Counted from the first letter of the stretch, positions 33,941-48,098 are shown. The stretch: DNA of 64,000 bases from a bacterium (GCA_965261085.1 OZ253442.1:1312001-1376000), one strand, 5' to 3'. A program made the numbers and translations. The notes: generated from the sequence alone by a model not told the origin.

Positions 33941-34969
33941 ATGAAAGCGGCTTTGCTTGAAAAAATAAGGGCTATGAGCGTGGGCGATCAGCCGGATCCC
34001 GGCCTTCCCGCCGACCATGTGCTGGTTCGCGTGGCCACCTCCGCCATCTGCGGCACGGACGTATCCATCTGGGCGGGGAAGATGCCCGCGCGCATCCCCC
34101 TCATCCCCGGCCATGAGTGCACGGGCACGGTGGAGCAGGTCGGCGAGAGCGTCACCCGCTTGAAGATAGGCGACCGGGTGGTGCTGAATCCTCTTTCCAG
34201 TTGCGGTTCTTGTTTCTACTGCGTGCGCGGGCTGACGAACATCTGCCTGAACGGCGGATTGAGAGGCCGCGAAGTGCCGGGCACTTTCGCCGAGTATATT
34301 GCCGTGCGCGAGACCGAAGCCTTCGCCTTTCCAGAGAACGTGAGTTTCGCCGCGGCGACGAACTTCGTGGGTCTTTACACGGTAGTCTACAGCCAGAGAA
34401 AAGCGCCCTATATTGCGGGCTCGCGCGTGGCCGTCCTGGGACAGGGCAGCAGCGGCCTGCTCCATACGCAGTTGGCGAAAGTCTCAGGCGCGGCGTCCGT
34501 GATCGCCGTGACGAGGAGCAAGTGGAAGCTCGAGGTGGCCCGGCAAATGGGTGCGGATGAAATCGTGCCGGCGGGCGAGGTGAACCCCGTGGAAGCCGTG
34601 CGTGAGTTGACCGACGGGCTCGGCGCCGACGTGGTGATCGAGACGGCCGGAGCCGCCCAGACCATGGTGCAGGCGTATGAGATGGTGCGGCCCGGCGGCG
34701 TCATCCTGCAATTCGGCATCGGGCCGGCTGCGGTCGACGGGGTGCCGGGCCAGGCCTATTACTTCAAGGATCTGACCGTCATCGGCTCGCGCGCAGGGCT
34801 CCCGGAGGATTTCGAGAGCGCCATCCGCCTGGTGGCGACCGGGCAAATCGACCTGGAACCCCTCGTCACCCACCACTTCGCGCTCGATGACATTCAGGCG
34901 GGCTTCGAATTCGTCGACTCAGGCGGGGACGGCGGCACGCTCCGGGCGGTGATCGAGATAGCGAATTGA
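33941..34969 (+). CDS. Zinc-dependent medium-chain alcohol dehydrogenase
   Basis: ICGTD, GHE, CGSCFYC...C, GQGSSG. Confidence 0.92.
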   Translation: MKAALLEKIRAMSVGDQPDPGLPADHVLVRVATSAICGTDVSIWAGKMPARIPLIPGHECTGTVEQVGESVTRLKIGDRVVLNPLSSCGSCFYCVRGLTNICLNGGLRGREVPGTFAEYIAVRETEAFAFPENVSFAAATNFVGLYTVVYSQRKAPYIAGSRVAVLGQGSSGLLHTQLAKVSGAASVIAVTRSKWKLEVARQMGADEIVPAGEVNPVEAVRELTDGLGADVVIETAGAAQTMVQAYEMVRPGGVILQFGIGPAAVDGVPGQAYYFKDLTVIGSRAGLPEDFESAIRLVATGQIDLEPLVTHHFALDDIQAGFEFVDSGGDGGTLRAVIEIAN

Positions 34970-35089
34970 TTTGTACGGGCGCGCATTTGTTTCCGCTGTC
35001 GATGATCGAGGCGCCTGGACGCGGTGCGCGCGGCGGCGAGGTGATTTCCGTCGCGCGCGGGCTTATCTGTAGAAAACAAGGAGGTCGTC

Positions 35090-35962
35090 ATGGCTCTTGA
35101 ACACCCATACATTCGCATCGCCAACATAACGCCCGAGAAGCTGGACGAAAAAGAGGGTTGGAACGTCTCCGATTTCCGGGTGGTCGTCAGCGGGAAGGAG
35201 GGTTCCTCCTCCATCATGTACCACGCCACCCTGGCCCCCGGGGATCGCCACCACAAGCACCGCTACGAGAACTGCCAGATGCAGTATTACGTCGTGAGCG
35301 GCCACGGCCTCGCGGGAGCGGGGGCGGATCGCGCCGAGGTGCACGCGGGCCACTTCCACCTGATCCCAAAAGGCGTGGAGCACTGGCTCGTGAACCTGGG
35401 CAGGCACGATCCCCTCGTCATCATCGGGTTCTACGACCGTGTTCCCCATTTCAAGGACACCGGCCACGTCTATCTCGGCGACGTGGGCGAGGCCGACCTC
35501 GCCGCCCCGCGCACGTTAAGCGCCGCCGCCCTGCAGCATCCCCTCGTGCACAACGACTCGGTTCCCCACGTCAAGGTGTCGAAAGAAGAAGGCTGGACGC
35601 AGGATTACTTCAACGAGCCGCTCAATCGCAGCAACGGGGCGGGTTCATGCTGGATGCAGGGCTACTTCGGCCCCCACACCGTGCACATGAAGCACCGCCA
35701 CAACAATTGCGAGGAGATATGCTATATCCTGAAGGGCCGCGGTTTGGCCGGAATCGGTAACGATCGGGGTGAAGTGTTCGCCGGGGACGTCAACTACATA
35801 CCCGCCGCCACGGAGCATTGGCTCGCGAACATCAGCGACAGCGAGGATCTCTCGGCCCCCGGCTGGTACATCGGCGTGGGCGGACTCGATGAGAGCGGCT
35901 TCGAGTATCTGGGTCCGGTGACAGATGAGGATTTGAAACAACGAACGGGCGCGATTGAATAG
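35090..35962 (+). CDS. Bicupin protein A
   Basis: Two cupin domains: HHKHRYENC...IPKGVEHW and HMKHRHNNCEE...IPAATEHW. Confidence 0.85.
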   Translation: MALEHPYIRIANITPEKLDEKEGWNVSDFRVVVSGKEGSSSIMYHATLAPGDRHHKHRYENCQMQYYVVSGHGLAGAGADRAEVHAGHFHLIPKGVEHWLVNLGRHDPLVIIGFYDRVPHFKDTGHVYLGDVGEADLAAPRTLSAAALQHPLVHNDSVPHVKVSKEEGWTQDYFNEPLNRSNGAGSCWMQGYFGPHTVHMKHRHNNCEEICYILKGRGLAGIGNDRGEVFAGDVNYIPAATEHWLANISDSEDLSAPGWYIGVGGLDESGFEYLGPVTDEDLKQRTGAIE

Positions 35963-36002
35963 CGCTTCCTGAAAGAGCAACCATTTTGTGAGGAACAGAC
36001 CG

Positions 36003-36860
36003 ATGGCGCTCCAATACCCCCTGGTTCATATAGACGATATCGCCCCCGAGAGGATGGAGGAAAAAGAGGGCTGGGCGATTTCCGAGTTTCGCCTGCCCAT
36101 CACCGGCGCGCACGGAAGCTCGACGACCGTCTTTCACTCCATCTTCCGGCCCGGCTCCACGCACGCGAAACACTTACACACCGAGTGTGAGGAAATCGCG
36201 GTCTACTTGAAGGGAAACGGCGTGGTCGGCCAGGGCGACCAACGCGCCGAGGTGCGCGAGGGCCACTGCCGCCTCATGCCCAAAGGCTCGACGCATTTCT
36301 TCTATAACGAGACGAAAGACGAGGAAGCGATGGTGGTCGGGTTTTATCTCGGTGCGCCGAGCGTCGCGGGCACGGGCTATCAATTTCGCGGCGACGTGAC
36401 CCAAGCGGACCTCGACATGCCGCGCGATGGGCTGACCGATGGCATCCTGGTTCATCTCGACGACGTGCCGCAACAGAACATGAACGAGGGGGAGGGATGG
36501 TCGATCACCGATTTCAGGCTTCCTCTCGGCAGGCGCAACGGCAGCGATACGACGCTTTTTCGCGCGCGTTTTTTCCCGGGCGCCGTGCACAAAAAGCACA
36601 GGCACGATAATTGCGAGGAAATCTACTACATCATCAGCGGCCACGGCCTGGCGGGCGCGGGCGCTGATCGCGTCGAGGTGCGCGGCGGTCATTTCCACTA
36701 CATCCCCAAAGGGGTGGAGCACTGGCTTCACAATCTGAGCGATACCGAACCCATCGAGGCGGTGGGTATCTACATCGGGAGCGGGAGCGTGGAGGAGACG
36801 GGCTACGTCTATATGGGAGACGTTACGGAAGAGGACATCAAGGAGCGGACCCCGCTCTAG
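36003..36860 (+). CDS. Bicupin protein B (paralogue of A)
   Basis: HAKHLHTECEE...MPKGSTHF and HKKHRHDNCEE...IPKGVEHW; start MALQYP parallels MALEHP of A. Confidence 0.85.
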   Translation: MALQYPLVHIDDIAPERMEEKEGWAISEFRLPITGAHGSSTTVFHSIFRPGSTHAKHLHTECEEIAVYLKGNGVVGQGDQRAEVREGHCRLMPKGSTHFFYNETKDEEAMVVGFYLGAPSVAGTGYQFRGDVTQADLDMPRDGLTDGILVHLDDVPQQNMNEGEGWSITDFRLPLGRRNGSDTTLFRARFFPGAVHKKHRHDNCEEIYYIISGHGLAGAGADRVEVRGGHFHYIPKGVEHWLHNLSDTEPIEAVGIYIGSGSVEETGYVYMGDVTEEDIKERTPL

Positions 36861-37009
36861 GGGCTCATCGGCGCTTTCAAGGCCCGGCGGAATATGGGAA
36901 TAGTTGCATCATGTATTTTATCTTTTGCCTTTTGCGCACGCCGTGGTATCCTTGAGGGGCATGGGGAATTGGCGCATATATACGAGACAAATCATTCGGG
37001 AGTAATGCC

Positions 37010-37558
37010 ATGAAGATAACCGAGGCGGCAGCCGGTAAAGTCAAGGAAATCATGGAGCAAAACGGCGGTGGTTTCGCCGGAATCCTGCTCAGTTTCGAGG
37101 GCGGCTACAAGCTCGACCTGGTGAAGGATGAGGATGTGGCCGAATACATCCGGGTAGAGAATTCCCTGCTGGGCGTTTTCGCCTCATCCGAGCACGTCGC
37201 CAGGGCGGAGAAGGCTCAAATCGAGTTCGTAACCGAAGGCCCTACGAGCGGGTTCAAGGTGACGCGCGAGATGTCGGATGGCGATGTGTCCCTCATCGAT
37301 CAGATTCAGGAGATTATCGACACGGAGATCAACCCGGCCGTCGCGTCCCACGGCGGCGTCATCAACCTGCTGGACGTGGAGGAAAAGCGTGTGTTCGTGC
37401 AGATGGGCGGAGGCTGCGCGGGTTGCGGCATGGCGGACGTGACGCTCAAATCAGGCGTCGAGGCGCGCCTGCAGCAACTAGACCCCGAGATTCAGGTGAT
37501 CGACACCACCGACCACGCATCGGGCTCGAACCCCTACTACGCGCCGACGAAAAAATAG
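37010..37558 (+). CDS. nfuA: Fe/S biogenesis protein NfuA
   Basis: Degenerate A-type N-domain plus INPAVASHGG, GGGCAGC, TDHASGSNPYY. Confidence 0.9.
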   Translation: MKITEAAAGKVKEIMEQNGGGFAGILLSFEGGYKLDLVKDEDVAEYIRVENSLLGVFASSEHVARAEKAQIEFVTEGPTSGFKVTREMSDGDVSLIDQIQEIIDTEINPAVASHGGVINLLDVEEKRVFVQMGGGCAGCGMADVTLKSGVEARLQQLDPEIQVIDTTDHASGSNPYYAPTKK

Positions 37559-37578
37559 TTTTAGTAAATAGCACGACG

Positions 37579-37608
37579 AAGGGCCGGCCGTTTGGCCGGC
37601 CTTTTTTT
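37579..37608 (+). terminator. Rho-independent terminator between convergent genes
   Basis: GGCCGGCC-gttt-GGCCGGCC followed by T7. Confidence 0.85.
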
Positions 37609-37611
37609 GTT

Positions 37612-38865
37612 CTATTCCCCGATATCGAAGCGGAGCTTCCCGTGCGCTAAGCGCAGAGCGGCTTCCACCTCTTCGGGCTTCTCTCCTTTGGCGAAGATAA
37701 ACCCCAGGTATCTCTCTCCCTCGGGCAGCGGCACGACGCGGCCGCCGATGTGGATGGATATGTCCAGGCTCACGATTCCGGGCACGGCGAGCGCGTCCTC
37801 CTTGCCCTCGACGCGCTTGAGCACCCCCGCTCCGGGTATGGGAATCATCATGACGCCAGAAGCCTTTTCCTCCCGCTCCACCGATGGCGGGGCCACGCCC
37901 AGGGCTTGGGAGAGAATGAGGTGTTCGAGCGAGGCGCCGCCGCCGAACTCGAGCGCGCCCGAGCATTTCCCGCCGATAGAGCGGCTAGCCACGTCGATCA
38001 CCCATATTCGGCCTTCCTCGTTGATTCTCAGTTCCGCGTGGAGTGGACCCTCGCGCAGGCGGATCGCCCGGGCCGCGCGAATGGTTTCTTCGCGGATTCT
38101 GGCTTGGCTTTCATCCGGTAGCCTCGAGGGCGTGACGTAGATGGTTTCCTCGAAAAAAGGACCCTCGAGGGGGTCGGGCTTGTCGAAGATGGCGAGAATG
38201 TGGACTTCCCCCCGCACGACGAGGCCTTCCACCGCCACCTCGACGCCCTCCAGGTAATCCTCCACCAGGATCATCCGCGCCTCCGGGCCGCCCCGGGCGA
38301 TGGTCTCGGGGTCTTCCAGTATCGCGCCGACCCGGCGGTAGGCCTCTGCGAACTCCGCCGGGTCGTTCGCTCGAATCACGCCCCGGCTTGCGGCCAGAAA
38401 GGTGGGCTTGAGCACGCAAGGGTAGCGGAGGCCTGCGGCGATTTTTTCCGGCTCTTCTTGTGCGGAGACCAGGCGAAAGGCGGGTGAGGGCAGGCCTTCT
38501 TCGGACAAGACTTTTCTGAGTTCATATTTGCTTCTCGTCGTGCGGGCGGCCTCCACGGGGTGGTAGGGCAAGCCCAGCGCTTCGGCGGCCATCGCGCCCA
38601 GGATGAGCGTGTCGTCATCCACCGGGGCGACCGCGTCGATGGGAAACTCTTTCGTGAACGCCTGTATGTGGGAGGCGCCCGCTTCGGGTTCGTTGTAATC
38701 GAGCGTGATGGAGCCGCCCGGGTTCAACTCGGCCAACAGGTCGGGCCTGTCGGTTCCCACCGTCAGGCGCAGTCCCATCTCCTGCGCCGCCGCCATATAG
38801 GCGGATGCCCGGTAGGTGGCCGTCGTCATCAGCAGGAGAACGCGCTCCCCTTCTTCAGGTGGCAT
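37612..38865 (-). CDS. ATP-grasp domain protein (L-amino acid ligase-like)
   Basis: YPCVLKP..LAASRGV, VEDYLEG.EVAVE, HAELR. Confidence 0.85.
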   Translation of the reverse strand: MPPEEGERVLLLMTTATYRASAYMAAAQEMGLRLTVGTDRPDLLAELNPGGSITLDYNEPEAGASHIQAFTKEFPIDAVAPVDDDTLILGAMAAEALGLPYHPVEAARTTRSKYELRKVLSEEGLPSPAFRLVSAQEEPEKIAAGLRYPCVLKPTFLAASRGVIRANDPAEFAEAYRRVGAILEDPETIARGGPEARMILVEDYLEGVEVAVEGLVVRGEVHILAIFDKPDPLEGPFFEETIYVTPSRLPDESQARIREETIRAARAIRLREGPLHAELRINEEGRIWVIDVASRSIGGKCSGALEFGGGASLEHLILSQALGVAPPSVEREEKASGVMMIPIPGAGVLKRVEGKEDALAVPGIVSLDISIHIGGRVVPLPEGERYLGFIFAKGEKPEEVEAALRLAHGKLRFDIGE

Positions 38866-39634
38866 ACCACCCGCCGTCCACCAGGAGCGATGTGCCGGTG
38901 ACGAGACTGCTCGCCTGTGAGGCCAGAAAGACGGCCGGGCCTACGAGTTCACTCATCTGCCCGAATCGGCCCATGGGCGTTCTGTCGCAGATGGCGTCGT
39001 AGATGAGTTTGTCTTCCTGGAGAGAGGCGGTGAGATCCGTTTCGATGTACGTGGGGCAGATGGCGTTCACCTGGATGTTCTCCTTCGCCCATTCGGAGGC
39101 GAAAACGCGGGTGAGGCCGATGACGCCGCTTTTGGAAGACGTGTAGGGCCCGTAGCACTGTTTGCGCGGGTTTCTGAACACCGACCAGCCCATGAGCGAG
39201 GAGATGTTGATCACCTTGCCGCCGCCCGCCTTTTTCATCTCCTCGCCCGCGCGCCTCGTGATGAAGAAGATGCTCTTTAAGTTCAGATCGAGCACCCTGT
39301 CCCAGTCCGCCTCGGTGATATCCCAAAGAGTTTTCCGCACGTTCGTGCCCGCGTTGTTCACCAGCACGGTGAGGCCGTCCAGCGCGGCGGCGGCTTCGAT
39401 CACCATGCGCTCGGCTGATTCCATATCGGTCACGTCGGTCTGGATGAGCGCGCATTTACGGCCCATGCCCTCGATGGCTTCTTTCGCCTCCTGGGCGGGG
39501 CTTAAGTCGATATCCGCGATGGCGACGTCTGCGCCTGCGGCGGCCAGGCCCTCGGCCAGCGTGCGTCCGATGCCGCGCGCAGCGCCCGTGACGAGCGCCT
39601 TGGCACCGCTCAGGTCGAATAGAGATTGGCTCAT
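38855..39634 (-). CDS. SDR oxidoreductase (KduD/gluconate 5-dehydrogenase-like)
   Basis: TGAARGIG, NNAG, YTSSK, VDGG. Confidence 0.9.
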   Translation of the reverse strand: MSQSLFDLSGAKALVTGAARGIGRTLAEGLAAAGADVAIADIDLSPAQEAKEAIEGMGRKCALIQTDVTDMESAERMVIEAAAALDGLTVLVNNAGTNVRKTLWDITEADWDRVLDLNLKSIFFITRRAGEEMKKAGGGKVINISSLMGWSVFRNPRKQCYGPYTSSKSGVIGLTRVFASEWAKENIQVNAICPTYIETDLTASLQEDKLIYDAICDRTPMGRFGQMSELVGPAVFLASQASSLVTGTSLLVDGGWYAT

Positions 39635-39824: not shown

Positions 39825-41474
39825 ATGGTGAAAGCCGGGGATAACGGCGCGAAAAAAGAGCGTCCCATCCGCGAGGCTGCCTATAACTCGGGCAAGCCCG
39901 TGCCCGTGGTGTACGGGCCGGACGCGCCGGATGAGGCGTACCGCGATAAACTCGGCGCGCCTGGGGAATACCCCTACACGCGGGGCATCTACCCCACGAT
40001 GTACCGGGGTTCGCTCTGGACGATGCGCCAGTACGCGGGTTTTTCCACCTCGGCGGACACCAACGCGCGGTTTCATTTTCTGCTCGGAAACGGCCAGACG
40101 GGCCTCTCGATGGCTTATGATCTGCCCACCCAGCTTGGGCTCGACTCGGACGATGAGACGGCGCAGGACGACGTGGGACGCCTGGGCGTCGCCGTGGATA
40201 CCGTCGAGGACATGGCCGGTATTTTCGAGGGAATACCGCTGGAGCGGGTGAGCGTCTCGCACACCATCAACTCCACCGCCGCCATCATCCAGGCGTTCTG
40301 GCTCATCGCCGCCGAGCGCCAGGGAGTCGCGCTGGAGAAGCTGCGCGGCACGTTCCAGAACGACATGCTCAAGGAATACATCGGCCGGGGCACATGGATT
40401 TTCCCGCCCCGGCCCTCCATGCGTCTTGTGGCGGACATCATCGAGTACAACGCGAAGCACTGCCCGCGCGTGAACGCCATCAGCGTTTCCGCCACTCACA
40501 TCGCCGAGACCGGCGCCACCCTCGCGCAGGACGTCGCCTTTCCCATCCTGAACGCCCTGGCCTACATACGCGAACTCACCGGACGCGGCCTCCACGTGGA
40601 TGATTTCGTGCCCACCATGTCGTTTCACCTCTCCATCGGCGGAGGCGTAGGGCCCTTCAATCTGCTCGAATCCATCGGCAAGCTGCGTGCGGCGCGGCGC
40701 ATCTGGGCGCGCACGATGAAGGAGAAATACGGCGCGAAAAACCCGAAAACCATCCAGCTTAAGTTCTCGACCGGCAATTGCGGCAGTCGCATGGCGGCGC
40801 GCGAGCCGCTCAACAACATCGTGCGCCAGACGCTCTTCACCCTGGCCGCCGTGCTGGGCGGCACGCGCTCGGTCAATATGGCGTGCTTCGATGAGGCCTT
40901 TGAGATTCCCTCAGACGAGTCCATTCGCACGGCGCTCCGGATTCAGCAGGTGATAGCCCATGAGAGCGGCGTGGCCGACACCGTGGACCCGCTAGCGGGC
41001 AGCTTTGCGCTGGAAGCCGTGACCGATCAGGTGGAAGAGGAGATTCAGGCAATCGTGGATGATTACGAATCGCGCGGGGGAATCGTTCCCTTCATCGAGA
41101 GCGGCGAGATCCAGAGGCTGCTGGCGCGCCAGGCCTATGAGCATCAGCAGAAGATTGCGGCAGGCGAGCAGGTGTGGGTGGGCGTGAACAAGTTCACCTC
41201 AGAAGAGGAAGACCGCATGAGCGCGGGCGAGGGCCTCTACGAGATGGACGATTCGACCCTCGAGAAACAAAAGGCGCGGCTTGCGGAGGTGAAGGCCGCC
41301 CGCGATGCGGGAGAGGTGGCCGCGCAACTAGAACAACTGCAAAGAACGTGTGAGTCGAAAGAGAATCTGGTGCCTTGTTTAATGGAGGCAGCCCGCGCGC
41401 GCCTTACCGTGGGGGAGATGACGGAGGTGATGCGCGGTGTGTTCGGAAGCTATATGGAGCCTTCGGTGGTTTGA
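39825..41474 (+). CDS. B12-dependent acyl-CoA mutase, substrate-binding large subunit (methylmalonyl-CoA mutase family, divergent)
   Basis: GEYPYTRG, RQYAGF, DLPTQLGLDSD, QNDMLKEY, VDPLAGS, VGVNKF. Confidence 0.92.
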   Translation: MVKAGDNGAKKERPIREAAYNSGKPVPVVYGPDAPDEAYRDKLGAPGEYPYTRGIYPTMYRGSLWTMRQYAGFSTSADTNARFHFLLGNGQTGLSMAYDLPTQLGLDSDDETAQDDVGRLGVAVDTVEDMAGIFEGIPLERVSVSHTINSTAAIIQAFWLIAAERQGVALEKLRGTFQNDMLKEYIGRGTWIFPPRPSMRLVADIIEYNAKHCPRVNAISVSATHIAETGATLAQDVAFPILNALAYIRELTGRGLHVDDFVPTMSFHLSIGGGVGPFNLLESIGKLRAARRIWARTMKEKYGAKNPKTIQLKFSTGNCGSRMAAREPLNNIVRQTLFTLAAVLGGTRSVNMACFDEAFEIPSDESIRTALRIQQVIAHESGVADTVDPLAGSFALEAVTDQVEEEIQAIVDDYESRGGIVPFIESGEIQRLLARQAYEHQQKIAAGEQVWVGVNKFTSEEEDRMSAGEGLYEMDDSTLEKQKARLAEVKAARDAGEVAAQLEQLQRTCESKENLVPCLMEAARARLTVGEMTEVMRGVFGSYMEPSVV

Positions 41475-41887
41475 TGGCGAGAACTGAGAAGCGCATACGG
41501 GTGCTGATGGCGAAGCCGGGCCTCGATGGCCATGATCGGGGTGTGAAGGTAATCATCCACGCGCTCAGGGACGCCGGCATGGAGGTGATCTACTCGGGTC
41601 TGCGGCAGACGGATGCGCAGATAGTCGCCGTCGCGCTTCAGGAGAACGTGGACGTCATCGGCCTGAGCGTGCTCTCGGGCGCCTATATGGGGATTGCGCG
41701 CAGGCTCATGGCCAGATTGGCCGAAGAGGGCCTCGATGATTGCCTCGTCATCTTAGGCGGGAACATTCTCGAGCGTGACGTGGCGGAGCTCAAATCCTTA
41801 GGCGTCGCCGAAGTCTTCAACCACCATGCGGACATGGCCGAAATCGTCTCGTACATCAGGAATAATGTAGTAGCCGGCGCGGCCTAG
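41474..41887 (+). CDS. Acyl-CoA mutase cobalamin-binding small subunit
   Basis: KPGLDGHDRG (DxHxxG), GLSVLSGA, LGG; TGATG coupling with the large subunit. Confidence 0.92.
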   Translation: MARTEKRIRVLMAKPGLDGHDRGVKVIIHALRDAGMEVIYSGLRQTDAQIVAVALQENVDVIGLSVLSGAYMGIARRLMARLAEEGLDDCLVILGGNILERDVAELKSLGVAEVFNHHADMAEIVSYIRNNVVAGAA

Positions 41888-41903
41888 CGGCGGCGTATCT
41901 TTC

Positions 41904-43112
41904 GTGGGGGAATCAGTTTTGGAAAAGCCGCTGGAGGGCGTGCGCATACTCGATCTTTCCGCCCTGCTCGCAGGCCCGTACGGCAGCATGGTGCTGGCCG
42001 ATTTGGGTGCGGACGTCATCAAGATAGAAGTGCCGGGCCGGGGCGACCTCGTCCGCACGATGCCGCCGCACTACGTGGGGGAGACGAGCGCCTACTTCAT
42101 CGCCCTGAACAGGAACAAGCGGGGCATTTTTCTGAACTTAAAAGACGAGGAGGGCTACCGCGTCTTTTGTGAGATGGTGAAAAGCTCCGACGTCGTTTAT
42201 GACAATTACCGCCCCGGCGTACTGGAACGCCTGGGCGCGGACTATAAAACACTCAAAAAGGTGAATCCCCGAATCATCAGCGCCTCCGTCACGGGCTATG
42301 GACTCACGGGGCCTCAAAAGGACAAGCCCGCTCTCGACCTCATCATTCAGGGGCGCGGCGGCATCATGAGCTTCACCGGCGAGCCGGGCAGGCCGCCCGT
42401 GCGCCTGGGCGTGCCGATGGGGGACATGGGCGGGGGTCTGTTCGCCGCACACGGGATTCTGGCGGCCCTTTACAAGCGCGAGAAGACGGGCGTCGGCCAG
42501 AAGGTGGACGTCTCGCTCCTCGACAGCCAGCTCTATCTCGCAAGCTACCGTTCGCAATACTATCTGACGGCGGGCGACGTGGCCAAGCCGATGGGCACGG
42601 GCCACGCATCCGCCGTTCCCATCGGCGCGTATCAGTGTGGCGACGGGAAGTGGCTTGTGCTCGATGCGATTCTGGATCATTTCTTCCAGGGTCTTTGCGA
42701 CGCGCTGGGTCATCCCGAATGGAAGGACGACCCCAGGATGAAGGATCGCCCCACCCGCCTCGAGAATCGCGAATACGTGGATGCGAAACTCTCGGAAGTC
42801 TACAAGACGAACACGGCGGCGTACTGGATAGAGAAAATCGAGGCGCACGGCGTTCCCTGCGGGCCGATTCAGAGCATCGACGAGGCGCTCAACGATCCCC
42901 AAACGCGCGCCCGAGAGATGGTGGTGGAGATGACCCACCCCGAACTCGGCAAGATGCAGACGTTCAACACGCCCGTCAAGATGGAGGGTACGTGGGGGGC
43001 CACCCCTTCGCCGCCTCCCCTGATGGGCGAGCACACCGAAGAAGTGCTCAAGGAAGTGCTTGGTCTGGGCGATGAGGAAATCGAGCGGTTAAAAGAGCGC
43101 AAGGCGATATAA
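41904..43112 (+). CDS. Class III CoA transferase (CaiB/BaiF)
   Basis: LAGPYG...LADLGADVIKIE, NRNKR, NYRPG, catalytic Asp in PMGD, P.MGEHT. Confidence 0.93.
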   Translation: MGESVLEKPLEGVRILDLSALLAGPYGSMVLADLGADVIKIEVPGRGDLVRTMPPHYVGETSAYFIALNRNKRGIFLNLKDEEGYRVFCEMVKSSDVVYDNYRPGVLERLGADYKTLKKVNPRIISASVTGYGLTGPQKDKPALDLIIQGRGGIMSFTGEPGRPPVRLGVPMGDMGGGLFAAHGILAALYKREKTGVGQKVDVSLLDSQLYLASYRSQYYLTAGDVAKPMGTGHASAVPIGAYQCGDGKWLVLDAILDHFFQGLCDALGHPEWKDDPRMKDRPTRLENREYVDAKLSEVYKTNTAAYWIEKIEAHGVPCGPIQSIDEALNDPQTRAREMVVEMTHPELGKMQTFNTPVKMEGTWGATPSPPPLMGEHTEEVLKEVLGLGDEEIERLKERKAI

Positions 43113-43121
43113 GAGGCCGTC

Positions 43122-43910
43122 ATGTTTCATGACAAAAAGGCTTTCGTGTTCGACCTGGAAGGAGTTTTTTTCGCCGGAGACGAGGTGATGTCCGGCGGGG
43201 TGGAGTTGATGCGCGCCATCAAGCGGAGAAACCTCCCCCATCGCTTCATCACGAACATCAGCCGCAGCACGGCTGCGGAGATTCGCGCCCACATGGCGGG
43301 GATCGGCCTCGACCCGGGGGAGAACCTCATCGTGGCCGCGCTGGATCGGGTTGGTTCGTTTCTGAGGAAGAACTTTGGATCTGGCCGGGCGTACGTGCTG
43401 GGGACGGATTCGCTCAAGGGAGCGGTCGCATCGGGTGGTTTCGAGATAGTGGGCCTGGAGGAGGAAGATGCGGCCGACGTCGTCCTCGTTGGTCTAGACG
43501 AGGCTCTCACCTACCGGACGTTGAGCGCAGCCGCCCGGGCGGTCAGCCGGGGGGCGCACTTCGTCGCCATGAACCCCGACGTGCGCCTGCCGAGTGAGGA
43601 TGGTTCGTTCTCCCTCGGCGGGGGCGCAATCATGGCTTCGGTGCAGGCGGCGGCGGGCAGGGAGCCGGTTTTTTTTGGAAAGCCCGAGCCTTTTCTCTTT
43701 GAAGAAGCGCTTCATGAGTTGGGCGTGGAGGCGCGCCACGTCGTCATGGTGGGAGACAACCTAAGGACGGACATCGCGGGCGGCCAGAAAGTGGGCATGG
43801 CCACCGTGTGGGTGAACCGCTGGGGCGTGATAGCCGGGGACCCGGACGTGACGGCGGACCTGGAAGTGAAGACGCTTGATGAACTGATGCCGCATCTGCC
43901 GGGCGGTTGA
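43122..43910 (+). CDS. HAD-IIA family hydrolase (NagD-like)
   Basis: FDLEGV, ITN, NPD, GKP, GDNLRTDI. Confidence 0.88.
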   Translation: MFHDKKAFVFDLEGVFFAGDEVMSGGVELMRAIKRRNLPHRFITNISRSTAAEIRAHMAGIGLDPGENLIVAALDRVGSFLRKNFGSGRAYVLGTDSLKGAVASGGFEIVGLEEEDAADVVLVGLDEALTYRTLSAAARAVSRGAHFVAMNPDVRLPSEDGSFSLGGGAIMASVQAAAGREPVFFGKPEPFLFEEALHELGVEARHVVMVGDNLRTDIAGGQKVGMATVWVNRWGVIAGDPDVTADLEVKTLDELMPHLPGG

Positions 43911-43932
43911 GTCTCCGAAAAGAGAGGACGAT

Positions 43933-44688
43933 ATGGCGCTGGTCGAATATGAGGTGAGAGACAAGCTGGCCTGTATCACGCTGAACAGGCCGGAGAAGAT
44001 GAACGCGATCAATCACGAGATGAGCGAGCGCATCTTTTCGCTCTTCGACGAGATGGAACGCGACCCCGGCGTTTGGGGCTGTCTGATCACAGGCGAGGGA
44101 AAAGCGTTCTCGAGCGGGCATGACCTCACCGAGCCGCCGCCCGAGGATAGGGAGATCAAACCCGTCTCCGACCTCTATCAGGTCATCATGGAACTCTACA
44201 AGCCATGCTTTGCGGCGATCAACGGGTTTTGTCTGGCGGGAGGAGCGGGCATCGCGCTCTCCTGCGACGTGCGCGTCATGGCTGAAGATACGCAGCTCGG
44301 CTGGCCCCAGGTCGTGCGCGGCATCTCCTCCGTCAGCGGGCCGATTCTCCTGGCGAAGCTGCTGCCCTTCAACCTCGCGCACTACCATCTGTTCACCGGC
44401 GAGCCCATCAACGCGGAGACCGCGCTCAGGCTCGGCCTTGTGAACAAGTTGGCGCCAAAGGAAAACGTGTTGGAGGAGACGGAGAAGATCGCGCGTCAGG
44501 TACTGGCGAACGCGCCCCTGGCGGTGCGCGCCATCAAGGAGATTACCGTCCGCGCGCGCGACATGACGATGGAGGACGCCCTTCGCTTCGGCGACGTGAT
44601 CTTAAAGCGCCTACTTGAGACTGAAGATGCCGAGGAGGGCGTGCGCGCCTTCAAGGAGAAAAGAACGCCGCATTTTAAGGGGAAATAA
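43933..44688 (+). CDS. Crotonase-fold protein lacking both canonical catalytic glutamates
   Basis: LNRPEKMNA, FSSGHDL, AAINGFCLAGGAGIALSCD, GWPQV. Confidence 0.88.
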   Translation: MALVEYEVRDKLACITLNRPEKMNAINHEMSERIFSLFDEMERDPGVWGCLITGEGKAFSSGHDLTEPPPEDREIKPVSDLYQVIMELYKPCFAAINGFCLAGGAGIALSCDVRVMAEDTQLGWPQVVRGISSVSGPILLAKLLPFNLAHYHLFTGEPINAETALRLGLVNKLAPKENVLEETEKIARQVLANAPLAVRAIKEITVRARDMTMEDALRFGDVILKRLLETEDAEEGVRAFKEKRTPHFKGK

Positions 44689-44737
44689 AGATTATTCTAA
44701 TCCTTTGCTCCATCCTTCTAGCTGAAAGGAGGCGGCG

Positions 44738-45898
44738 GTGAGATTTGACCTCACGGACTCTCAACGAGAAATCCAGCAAAAAGCCCGCGAAATCGCCACG
44801 AACCTGATAGCGCCCAAGGCGGCGTTCTGGGACCAGACCGAGGAATATCCCTGGGAAAACGCCAAGATTCTGGCGGATGCCGGCTTCATGGGAATGAACG
44901 TCCCCAAGGAATTCGGCGGACCCGAGCGTCCGCTGATAGAGGCCGTCCTGGTGGTCGAGGAGATGGCCAAGGTCTGCGGCATCACGGGGCGCATCGTGGT
45001 GGACAGCAACATGGGCGTGGTGGGAGCAATCATCAAGTACGGGACCGAGGAGCAGAAGAAAAAGTATCTGCCGATGGTGCTCGCAGGGGACAAGCCCGCC
45101 ATCGTCATCACAGAGCCCGAGGCGGGAAGCGCCGCCACCGACATGACGACGAGGGCCGTGCTCGACGGCGATGAGTACATCCTGAACGGCAAGAAGAAGT
45201 GGATTACCGGCGCTGGCGTCTCCCGCATCAATCTCGTGTTCGCCCGCGTGGTGCACGGGGGGGATGAACAGGGAATCGGCGCCCTGATCGTGGAGTTGGG
45301 CGCGGAGGGCTTCCGTATAGGGGATCGCGCCTTCATGATGGGCTTGAGGGGAATCCCCGAGAGTGAGGAGATCTTTGAGAATTGCCGTGTGCCTCAGAAA
45401 AACTTGGTGACGGTGGGATTCGGGCGCCTGATGGCCGCTTATAACGCACAGCGGGTGGGAGCCGGCACGGTGGCTTTGGGGATTGCCGAGGGCGCCTTCG
45501 CCCAGGCGGTGGAATACGCCAAAAAGCGCCACCAGTTCGGCCGCCCGATATCGGAATTCCAGGGGCTTCAGTGGATTCTGGCGGATGCGCGCATTCAACT
45601 CGACGCCGCGCGGCTCCTGCTCCACCGGGCGGCGGTGCAGGAAGACCCCAAAACGGGATTTCCCGACATGCGCCTGGCCGCCATAGCCAAGACGTTTTCG
45701 GCTGAAGCCTCGATCAAGGTGACGAACGACGCGCTCCAGATTTTTGGGGCGGCGGGCTATTCACGCGATTTGCCGATTGAGCGCATGGCGCGTGACGTGC
45801 GTATGTTCACCATCGGCGGCGGCACCACCCAGGCGCAGAGGAACGTGATTGCGTCTGGCATTTTCGGGAGAAAATTCTCTCAGCGCAGGGGAGAGTGA
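44738..45898 (+). CDS. acdA: Acyl-CoA dehydrogenase fold, 3-sulfinopropionyl-CoA desulfinase (AcdA)-like
   Basis: EYPWEN, GRIVVDSNMG, LAGDKPAI, WITGAGVS, MGLRGIPE, LMAAYNAQRVGAG, RMFTIGGGT (no catalytic Glu); these match recalled Advenella/Variovorax desulfinase motifs. Confidence 0.75.
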   Translation: MRFDLTDSQREIQQKAREIATNLIAPKAAFWDQTEEYPWENAKILADAGFMGMNVPKEFGGPERPLIEAVLVVEEMAKVCGITGRIVVDSNMGVVGAIIKYGTEEQKKKYLPMVLAGDKPAIVITEPEAGSAATDMTTRAVLDGDEYILNGKKKWITGAGVSRINLVFARVVHGGDEQGIGALIVELGAEGFRIGDRAFMMGLRGIPESEEIFENCRVPQKNLVTVGFGRLMAAYNAQRVGAGTVALGIAEGAFAQAVEYAKKRHQFGRPISEFQGLQWILADARIQLDAARLLLHRAAVQEDPKTGFPDMRLAAIAKTFSAEASIKVTNDALQIFGAAGYSRDLPIERMARDVRMFTIGGGTTQAQRNVIASGIFGRKFSQRRGE

Positions 45899-46015
45899 AA
45901 AAACCCCGTTCAAAGGGTGGGCGTCTCACGAAGGCGGCCCGCGTCCGCTTGGCTTATTGGGGCTGGAATGTCCCCGGAGAGAGCAGATAAACCCTGGCCG
46001 TATTGCAAAGGAACC

Positions 46016-46360
46016 ATGATGGCTATCTTTACGCTGCAGGAAGCCCGTGCCCTGCTGCCGCAGGTCAAGGAAGTGACGCAGCATTACTTCGATGTCGTTG
46101 AGGAGATGCGCGAACAGCTGGAAACCCTTGATGAGTCGCGCGATGTCAAGCGCCTCGAAGGATTCATGAATGACGCTGTTGGCGAGTGGGTGAAGGCCGT
46201 CAGAAACCTCGGGGTGGAAGTCAAAGGCTTATGGCTGGCGGATTTCGATTCGGGAGACGGCTATTACTACTGCTGGAAACTCGGCGAGGTCGACATCGAA
46301 CATTTTCACCGCTACGAAACGGGGTTCGCCGGTCGCCGTCCCATTTCGTTGCTCGAGTAA
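46016..46360 (+). CDS. DUF2203 family protein
   Basis: FTLQEARALLP, GVEVKGLWLADF, YCWKLGE, H....GFAGRRPI. Confidence 0.85.
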   Translation: MMAIFTLQEARALLPQVKEVTQHYFDVVEEMREQLETLDESRDVKRLEGFMNDAVGEWVKAVRNLGVEVKGLWLADFDSGDGYYYCWKLGEVDIEHFHRYETGFAGRRPISLLE

Positions 46361-46501: not shown

Positions 46502-47722
46502 CTAGCCGTATTGCAGTATCATGCCCGTGATCCCGCATTCGATGCAGCCGGCCACCTCGATGCAGCGTGAATTCGCCGGCGGCATCACCACGCCGGTAAT
46601 GCCCTCCCTGTAGTATCGCTCGAACGGATAGCGTCGCGCGATGGAGCGGCCCCCCACGAGCCGCATCGCGTGCTGCACCACCTTGGCGCAGACCTCGCAT
46701 GAGATGTATTTGGACTGCATGACGGTTTTCACCGTGTTCTGGTTCGCCATGCCGTCTCCTTGTTCTTTCACGTGGCACGCCTCGTACAGGAGCATCCGCG
46801 CGGCTCTGATTTCGGAGCTCAACTCGCCGATGCTGGTCTGGTACATCTCGTTGTGGCTCAGCGGCTCGGGGTTGGGCGGGTACTGCGTTGTTTTCACATA
46901 CTCGACCAGGTGATTGTAGGCCCCTTCCGCGATGCCCAGATAAGCGGCGGCAAACCCGAGGTGGAACATGGTGATGTCGATTTTCCCCAGCGCGCCGATG
47001 AAGTTCTCACCCCCCAGGATGTCTTCATGCGGCACGAAGGTATCCTCGAAGATGATGTCGTCACTCGCCGTTCCCCGCATCGACATGGTGTCCCACACCA
47101 CTTTCACGGATGAGCCTCCGTAATCCTTGTGGAGCACGGCGGTCATGATGGCTTCCGCAGCGGTATTCTTCCCCTCGAGGAACCCGGTGGTGAAGTAATA
47201 ATCGGCATGTGCGCCTATCGAGGCGGAAATCTTCCTGCCGCTTAAGCGGTAGCCGCCCTCGACGGGAGAGAAGATGGTCTTGAGCGTCACCAGATGACGG
47301 AAGCTCATACCTCGTTCCGCCGTGACGGAGGAGAATAGCTTTCCGTTCTCGACGATGTCGGGTAGCACCCGTTTTTTCTGCTCCTCGTTCGCCAGGTCGA
47401 AGAAGAGGCTCACGCATGTCTGGTGCATATTCCAGGTGAGGGCGGTGGAGGCGCACGCCTTGCCCAGTTCTGCGAGCGCCATGTTGTAGGTGAGGGAATT
47501 CGCGCCCGAGCCTCCCCACTCTTCAGGGATGCACAGGGCGTTCAGGCCCGCGTCGGTGAGCAGTTTGTAGTTCTCGGTGGGGAAGCGGCCTTCGCGGTCG
47601 ATTTCAGCCGCCATCTCGGCCATCTGTGGCGTGAGGGCTTTGATTTTGTCGATGATCTGTTTGTCGTATTTCAGATCCATCAGCGTTTCGTATGACTCAC
47701 TCGCCGCGATTTTGGGACCCAT
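46502..47722 (-). CDS. Acyl-CoA dehydrogenase-fold flavoprotein (possibly monooxygenase-like)
   Basis: IDREGRFP, MHQ, WDTMSMRGTASDD, YLGIA, ERYYR; no C-terminal catalytic Glu. Confidence 0.8.
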   Translation of the reverse strand: MGPKIAASESYETLMDLKYDKQIIDKIKALTPQMAEMAAEIDREGRFPTENYKLLTDAGLNALCIPEEWGGSGANSLTYNMALAELGKACASTALTWNMHQTCVSLFFDLANEEQKKRVLPDIVENGKLFSSVTAERGMSFRHLVTLKTIFSPVEGGYRLSGRKISASIGAHADYYFTTGFLEGKNTAAEAIMTAVLHKDYGGSSVKVVWDTMSMRGTASDDIIFEDTFVPHEDILGGENFIGALGKIDITMFHLGFAAAYLGIAEGAYNHLVEYVKTTQYPPNPEPLSHNEMYQTSIGELSSEIRAARMLLYEACHVKEQGDGMANQNTVKTVMQSKYISCEVCAKVVQHAMRLVGGRSIARRYPFERYYREGITGVVMPPANSRCIEVAGCIECGITGMILQYG

Positions 47723-48098
47723 TTTTTTCCTCCTGTTCATCAAGGCGAAAAGCGCCTCGCCCTCGATCATCCAGACGGCTTCCTGCTAAAGGTCGAGCGA
47801 GAAGACATGCTCGACGCATCTCGTGTTCAACTCATTCCAATCTCCATTTTGGTTTTCTATTCTCGCATCGCTCCGCCGGCTCGATTTGCAAAGGCGGTCG
47901 CGCCACATGAGAAAAGGCGCAATTCCTCCGCCGGGGGATGATTGTCGATTCTATCAGACGCCCCCTTGAGTTTGACAGCGCTTCATGGAGGCATGTAATC
48001 TCCGCTGGGTTTTCCATACTTTAACCCATTGTGAAAATTCGTGCACCAGCCGCCCGGCGGTCCTGGTTTCGTTTCTCATGTTTTCTGGGAAGGTGTCC

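Follow-up and report, generated by a model that had tools for sequence, protein, structure and literature searches.

A B12-dependent acyl-CoA mutase cassette beside a probable 3-sulfinopropionyl-CoA desulfinase: a gene cluster probably composed of two separately inherited modules

Whether a B12-dependent acyl-CoA mutase and an enzyme predicted to release sulfite from a sulfinoacyl-CoA belong to one pathway when they are encoded side by side is the question raised by a gene cluster in a 64,000-nucleotide stretch of bacterial DNA (GCA_965261085.1, OZ253442.1:1312001-1376000), referred to here as the window. Seven co-directional, tightly spaced genes occupy positions 39825-46360 (+), as established by open reading frame (ORF) calls and Pfam/NCBIfam searches. 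The first six had been described in an earlier reading of the sequence (the original prediction) as a candidate for an undescribed pathway, in which the mutase isomerises a sulfinate-bearing acyl-CoA (e.g., 2-sulfinopropionyl-CoA to 3-sulfinopropionyl-CoA, 3SP-CoA) and an AcdA-like enzyme of the acyl-CoA dehydrogenase (ACAD) fold then desulfinates the product. The six co-directional genes, their coordinates and the motifs of the ACAD-fold protein proved correct by ORF calls, Pfam/NCBIfam and alignments; the pathway itself we now regard as very unlikely. We consider it probable, without great assurance, that the locus combines two modules of separate inheritance, linked, if at all, by ordinary propionyl-CoA metabolism. 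Module 1 (39825-43910) would comprise a split B12 acyl-CoA mutase and a class III CoA-transferase, joined in this family by a HAD-IIA hydrolase, and module 2 (43933-46360) would be an accessory block of one genus, with an AcdA-type desulfinase, a crotonase-fold protein devoid of its usual glutamates and a DUF2203 protein.

The evidence that carries this answer is one of presence and absence. In a survey of 61 relatives from the same bacterial family, a mutase orthologue (identity of at least 70%) was found in 26 genomes and the desulfinase (E ≤ 1e-100) in 22; near-identical proteins carry the source labels 'Nitrospinae' or 'Tectomicrobia' bacterium. Both genes lie on one contig, no more than 5 kb apart, in 17 of the 26 mutase-bearing genomes, all of them in a single genus (g1), and such tight linkage speaks for the predicted sulfinate pathway. 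In three others, whose assemblies are fragmented, the two genes fall on separate contigs; in G029, 2.9 Mb separate the mutase from the closest desulfinase-like gene (58% identity); and in five (G001, G016, G024, G033 and G034) a desulfinase was not found with this query. The reverse case is provided by G009, an assembly of 99% completeness, where HAD-IIA and the desulfinase persist at the same locus without the mutase or the CoA-transferase. Within the family, each of the two enzymes is found without the other, which stands against the sulfinate pathway, and the association on which it leaned is confined to one genus. That the two modules come and go independently is a direct observation, as are the gene identities and the clade structure reported below.

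What remains constant across the fetched family loci is the unit mutL-mutS-CoAT-HAD, that is, the two mutase subunits, the CoA-transferase and the HAD-IIA hydrolase. This unit is followed directly by ruvB in G029 and G033, by a DNA methylase in G001 (on one contig) and, in genus g1, by AcdA with or without the crotonase-fold gene (ECH), DUF2203 and a second ACAD; therefore, the desulfinase block sits in a variable region. In G001 the DNA methylase and a 375-aa ORF occupy the place of that block (L100 5889-8038). The same variability downstream of HAD favours a pure juxtaposition, namely a cassette that acts with a new specificity on a substituted dicarboxylate and has no metabolic link to a desulfinase block that landed between HAD and ruvB, a reading that we hold to be unlikely.

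The separation is also seen outside the family. Among 301 sampled genomes from the phylum of a Syntrophaceae metagenome-assembled genome, a member of the mutase clade was found in eight, and six of these eight loci contain mutL-mutS-CoAT. The HAD, crotonase and desulfinase genes occur in none of the eight loci, and the same genomes hold no match to the window ACAD above 43% identity, which argues against a mutase dedicated to sulfinates. A clade-specific DNA pattern was then applied to metagenome contigs and returned 116 stretches, of which 80 became loci. Neighbours were tallied in the 70 loci whose mutase ORF shares 50% identity or more with the query, the other ten being excluded, and the counts are lower bounds because many contigs end near the mutase. 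The small subunit directly follows the large one in at least 36 of the 70, as it does in the relatives' loci that reach that far. The commonest neighbour after it is a class III CoA-transferase (at least 34 loci), followed by a carboxyl transferase (PF01039) and an epimerase-like Glyoxalase_4 protein (at least 17 each), a Cat1/ScpC-type CoA-transferase (at least 10), OAD_beta (at least 6) and an AMP-ligase (at least 5). Proteins like E. coli ScpC are present in nine of the 80 fetched loci and ScpB-like proteins in three; ArgK-like proteins are present in none. To judge from their sequences, these neighbours are gene sets of the methylmalonyl-CoA pathway, i.e., of succinate/propionate interconversion, and the clade relatives, flanked by carboxyl transferase, epimerase-like, OAD_beta, ScpC-like and ScpB-like genes, resemble methylmalonyl-CoA operons and Na+-translocating decarboxylase clusters.

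For the sulfinate model this is the wrong company, since the carboxyl-transferase, decarboxylase and epimerase-like neighbours act on carboxyl groups. An AcdA-like neighbour at 50% identity or more was found in none of the 70 metagenome loci, so that the proposed co-occurrence of mutase and AcdA was seen in 0 of the 8 other-phylum genomes and 0 of the 70 loci. With the association not conserved and the clade's neighbours drawn from the methylmalonyl-CoA pathway, the idea that the desulfinase receives its substrate from a rearrangement of a sulfinate-bearing acyl-CoA by the mutase finds no support. A FastTree phylogeny of the metagenome mutases places the query family as sister to three sub-clades, two of which have carboxyl-transferase and epimerase neighbours. 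The location of these two in classical methylmalonyl-CoA-pathway clusters is a point against pure juxtaposition with its new specificity; the remaining sub-clade, whose only neighbours are a transferase, a small protein, TAXI-TRAP transporter genes and an ICL/PEP-mutase-family gene, is a point in its favour. A further scan of genome contigs, with a back-translated mutase sequence, kept 80 loci, all at most 51% identical and, in an aligned sample, with the canonical signature; it was uninformative on the clade because one family-wide pattern saturated the matches.

The identity of the ACAD-fold protein, encoded at 44738-45898 (+; 386 aa), is the part of the original prediction that fared best. 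Its best NCBIfam family is NF042439 (3-sulfinopropionyl-CoA desulfinase, EC 3.13.1.4) with 552.3 bits, the next family scoring 347, and the score stays below the equivalog cut-off of 600 bits. The best PDB match is the Advenella desulfinase (5af7/5ahs, E 5e-129), and identities of 57%, 55% and 55% were found to PGAP-named desulfinases encoded on plasmids of Mesorhizobium loti, Paraburkholderia phenoliruptrix and Diaphorobacter. The motifs GRIVVDSN (residue 84), YNAQR (235) and FTIGGGT (357) align with the matching motifs of 5af7 and of these three proteins, GGG replacing YEG; FTIGGGT is also present in the named M. loti desulfinase. Equivalents of Arg84 and Gln246 are present, and the catalytic Glu of the YEG motif is missing, a combination that characterises the desulfinase. 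In a 22-row tree, a 16-row clade (support 99/99) unites the query, its relatives and all five named desulfinases, and leaves outside an IaaF-like enzyme, ordinary ACADs and one ACAD of 45% identity. The phylogeny with AcdA-type enzymes that had been proposed as a check therefore places the protein among the named desulfinases, although outside their own sub-clade (100/99). The protein is probably a desulfinase: it narrowly misses the curated score and agrees with the family in every sequence feature that could be compared.

The closest known system for this enzyme is that of Acd/AcdA and Act from Advenella mimigardefordensis DPN7 (5af7/5ahs) and Variovorax paradoxus TBEA6, which is also covered by NF042439. 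Shared with it are the ACAD fold, the Arg in GRIxV, the Gln in YNAQR, the absence of the catalytic Glu and the proximity of a class III CoA-transferase and a crotonase-fold gene, as on the three plasmids and as described for the V. paradoxus cluster (PMC6370202). In contrast to Acd/AcdA, the query lies below the 600-bit equivalog cut-off and outside the named sub-clade, and, unlike Act, the window transferase is separated from the ACAD by two genes and is only 37% identical. No thiol dioxygenase gene was found in the window, the CDO-like ORFs being about 0.65 and 0.85 Mb away. A second ACAD-fold gene (46502-47770, −) faces the block and accompanies the desulfinase in some relatives; its matches to flavoenzymes of sulfur acquisition (SfnB/DszC type) are weak, at 122 and 108 bits, and remain far under the cut-offs.

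The mutase is split. Its large subunit, mutL (39825-41474, +; 549 aa), matches PF01642 with 580 bits and TIGR00641 with 592 bits, and its B12-binding small subunit, mutS (41474-41887, +; about 137 aa), matches PF02310 with 76 bits and TIGR00640 with 133 bits. The ORF of mutS spans 41375-41887, and translation most likely begins with the ATG of position 41474, within a TGATG shared with the mutL stop codon. By alignment to the PDB entries 4r3u and 2xij, the large subunit keeps Tyr89, Gln197, Arg207 and His244, which we take to be substrate-binding and catalytic residues of methylmalonyl-CoA mutase (MCM) in Propionibacterium shermanii numbering, and its RQYAGF, GTFQND, IGRGTW and ATH motifs align with human MCM and E. 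coli ScpA. It differs by four pocket changes (Y243T, H328S, Q330G and N366A) and by a five-residue insert (GGGVG), and it scores 514 against a cut-off of 876 in the MCM equivalog NF006944. This signature is common to 119 of the 120 best database matches and is therefore the mark of a large clade, which a 33-row tree recovers as monophyletic (100/99), with canonical MCM, ICM-like and HCM-like rows on the other side. By sequence, the enzyme is not a canonical MCM, and the divergence claimed for it in the original prediction is borne out by the pocket changes, the insert and the separate clade. For the sulfinate model, the retention of the acid-binding Tyr89 and Arg207 in an otherwise changed pocket is a favourable point.

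Literature searches on acyl-CoA mutase subfamilies and on phenylsuccinyl-CoA mutase yielded no description of this clade. The genome encodes four acyl-CoA mutase large subunits: a canonical MCM type, an HCM-like paralogue, a third variant and the window mutase. The HCM-like paralogue has Ile for Tyr89 and Gln for Arg207, with a MeaB gene alongside. In the third variant the positions of Tyr243, His328, Gln330 and Asn366 hold Ala, Gly, Val and Cys, and the flanking genes encode a crotonase and an AOR-family protein.

The other genes of the cluster divide along the same line. The class III (CaiB/BaiF) CoA-transferase (41904-43112, +; PF02515, 443 bits) reaches no NCBIfam equivalog and is 72% identical to its partner in another genus of the family. 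The original prediction had pointed out that class III transferases can activate 3-sulfinopropionate; this one is only 37% identical to the Act-type transferases directly upstream of three named acdA genes, against 50-55% to the mutase-linked transferases of the other phylum. The HAD-IIA family hydrolase (43122-43910, +; TIGR01460, 145 bits) follows the transferase in the family's other genera with 53-55% identity (G029, G033 and G024), and its motif I reads D-L-E-G-V, with Glu in place of the usual Asp+2 in six of six sequences, query included, from three genera.

The crotonase-fold protein (43933-44688, +; PF00378, 173 bits) is absent from G007 and G009, both of which keep the desulfinase. 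Ile and Gln stand at the positions of both glutamates of 5zai, also in the orthologues of G010 and G020, and because both hydratase glutamates are missing, a plain enoyl-CoA hydratase is unlikely. We regard the gene as accessory and its product, on these residues, as a candidate decarboxylase or other non-hydratase. If it is a methylmalonyl-CoA decarboxylase of the E. coli ScpB type, it is a distant one (27% identity; NF008506, 131 bits against a cut-off of 257). The seventh co-directional gene (45917-46360, +) encodes a DUF2203 protein (PF09969, 85 bits), was found among the fetched relatives in G010 only, and belongs to the variable accessory block.

A comparison with the scpA-argK-scpB-scpC operon of E. 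coli, which leads from succinate to propionate, is instructive. Here too a mutase, a CoA-transferase and a crotonase-fold protein share one operon. However, the window transferase belongs to class III instead of the ScpC/Cat1 family, no ArgK/MeaB gene is present, the crotonase-fold protein has the low identity to ScpB given above, and four pocket residues of ScpA are replaced.

Several observations weigh against a composite whose mutase would serve ordinary propionyl-CoA metabolism. Tyr243, His328, Gln330 and Asn366 are all kept in E. coli ScpA, in human MCM and in the genome's own canonical paralogue; since four pocket residues differ from those of canonical MCMs, the substrate may not be methylmalonyl-CoA. 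The clade has as its sister a mutase encoded in the iaa-like cluster of an Archaeoglobaceae genome (split 100/98), although the placement of this IaaG-like row is less sure because of its long branch (0.83). Neither here nor in any of the 80 metagenome loci does a MeaB/ArgK chaperone gene adjoin the mutase; in this genome, both MeaB genes lie elsewhere. The epimerase and carboxyl-transferase neighbours are absent from the window and from the query's own sub-clade, and the only carboxyl transferase found in the genome that resembles the beta subunit of propionyl-CoA carboxylase sits in a cluster of the Na+-decarboxylase type. Finally, the genes are tightly packed and probably co-transcribed, and a single dedicated pathway would look alike. 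The altered pocket, the absent MeaB partner and the IaaG-like sister together allow a substrate other than methylmalonyl-CoA.

The relation to the iaa-like cluster suggests one such alternative, in which the transferase activates a substituted succinate, the mutase converts it to a substituted malonyl-CoA, the GGG-bearing ACAD carries out an oxidative decarboxylation as IaaF does, and the crotonase-fold protein processes the product. PMC8360864 describes IaaL as a class III transferase, IaaGH as the mutase and IaaF as an ACAD with GGG for YEG. The window ACAD also has GGG, and the mutase clade is sister to that of the Archaeoglobaceae cluster. Furthermore, like IaaGH, the phenylsuccinyl-/benzylmalonyl-CoA mutase of Aromatoleum aromaticum, the window mutase is split and keeps Tyr89 and Arg207; as in IaaG, small residues occupy the Gln330 and Asn366 positions; and its pairing with a class III CoA-transferase recalls IaaGH with IaaL (PMC8360864). 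However, it is only about 48% identical to the IaaG-like enzyme, has Thr for Tyr243 and carries the five-residue insert.

The ACAD speaks against this route. The IaaF-like ACAD of the cluster is 36% identical to the window protein, lacks both the Arg and the Gln of YNAQR, and lies outside the desulfinase clade. As the same GGG is present in the named M. loti desulfinase, the motif was rejected as a sign of an IaaF-type enzyme. Moreover, the window contains no IaaF-type ACAD and neither hydantoinase-like nor other iaa genes, and the mutase's conserved partners do not include the ACAD, so that an iaa-like route appears highly improbable. The Archaeoglobaceae locus itself (L134, G380:C1:1995000-2014900) encodes a 3-hydroxyacyl-CoA dehydrogenase, a thiolase, hydantoinase A/B, a GGG ACAD, the small and large mutase subunits and an AOR-family protein. 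This content fits the iaa operon described in PMC8360864, and on that basis the locus is a putative iaaFGH.

Pure juxtaposition gains from the same features, since the altered pocket, the insert and the IaaG-like sister point to a bulkier mutase substrate. Set against it are the co-directional arrangement and the short gaps within the six-gene block (−1, 16, 9, 22 and 49 nt), together with contigs from the RNA libraries of two studies, which span the mutS/CoAT, HAD/ECH, ECH/AcdA and AcdA/DUF2203 junctions and cover most of the region. These contigs are short, come from related strains (93-99% alike), have no silent-stretch control and denote presence in RNA libraries, not a transcript; because DNA carry-over is not excluded, the bridging is a weak hint of co-expression. 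A consensus promoter/terminator scan found no terminator-like sites on the + strand inside the block, and, as it gave fewer sites than shuffled controls, it was uninformative. A further argument against juxtaposition is that two unrelated lineages have an AcdA-like gene next to genes for propionyl-CoA carboxylase or MCM. On a plasmid of M. loti, the CoA-transferase-acdA pair is preceded by propionyl-CoA carboxylase genes, that of the beta subunit about 3.5 kb and that of the alpha subunit about 5.3 kb upstream. In a Rokubacteria metagenome-assembled genome (L035 2231-7980), an AcdA-like gene lies upstream of a carboxyl transferase and a mutase with the canonical signature, all within 6 kb; its product is 56% identical to the window ACAD, with GGG and YNGQR.

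These precedents show how the two modules of the composite favoured here could be linked. Since the mutase keeps the carboxylate-binding Tyr89 and Arg207 and the catalytic His244, it most probably acts on a carboxylated acyl-CoA, either succinyl-/methylmalonyl-CoA or a close substituted analogue, and not on a sulfur compound; the class III CoA-transferase would load or unload CoA. The desulfinase would hydrolyse 3SP-CoA to propionyl-CoA and sulfite. If the modules cooperate, this propionyl-CoA would be carboxylated elsewhere, the mutase would then isomerise the product to succinyl-CoA, and succinyl-CoA (or propionyl-CoA) could serve as the CoA donor that activates the incoming acid. As the mutase neighbours across the clade are methylmalonyl-CoA-pathway genes, the disposal of propionyl-CoA would be the simplest link. 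From these comparisons we infer which substrates are used, in which direction the flux runs and any use of the transferase by both modules. A succinyl-CoA-dependent Act and a methylmalonyl-CoA route for propionyl-CoA are both described in passages of PMC6370202; there a mutase is mentioned only as MCM downstream of propionyl-CoA, which, for the sulfinate model, is consistent with an undescribed reaction.

Two further regions complete the picture of the locus and its genome. Upstream of the cluster, positions 33941-39634 contain a Zn-ADH gene, two genes for 290-aa bicupins, a NifU-like gene and a divergent pair encoding an SDR and an ATP-grasp (L-amino-acid-ligase-like) protein, whose synteny with the cassette is kept across the family and which are retained in G009 despite the loss of the mutase. 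Elsewhere in the same genome, a locus at 3904000-3915000 (L261) encodes an enolase-superfamily protein, an HMGL-like protein, a carboxyl transferase, OAD_gamma, OAD_beta, a class III CoA-transferase and a GntR regulator, and looks like a Na+-translocating acyl-CoA decarboxylase set; its CoA-transferase is the genome's best match to Act (44-45%).

The significance of the locus differs between its two parts. We give very little credence to a genus-specific recruitment of the mutase into an operon with the AcdA-type desulfinase and the Glu-less crotonase-fold protein, in which it would isomerise a sulfinate analogue of succinyl-/methylmalonyl-CoA or a branched sulfinoacyl-CoA; if true, such a sulfinate-isomerising mutase would constitute a new route of organosulfinate degradation. 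The desulfinase would be a new member of a known enzyme family, which it would extend to a little-studied lineage. The mutase is the more interesting part: its clade of B12 acyl-CoA mutases is widespread, seems to have escaped study, and in anaerobes is often found within clusters of methylmalonyl-CoA-pathway genes. That the clade as a whole acts on a type of substrate hitherto undescribed for acyl-CoA mutases is a tentative proposition, on which we would not insist, and a likelier one than the sulfinate route. The clade may thus embody either a second, structurally different solution to methylmalonyl-CoA isomerisation or a new class of substrate.

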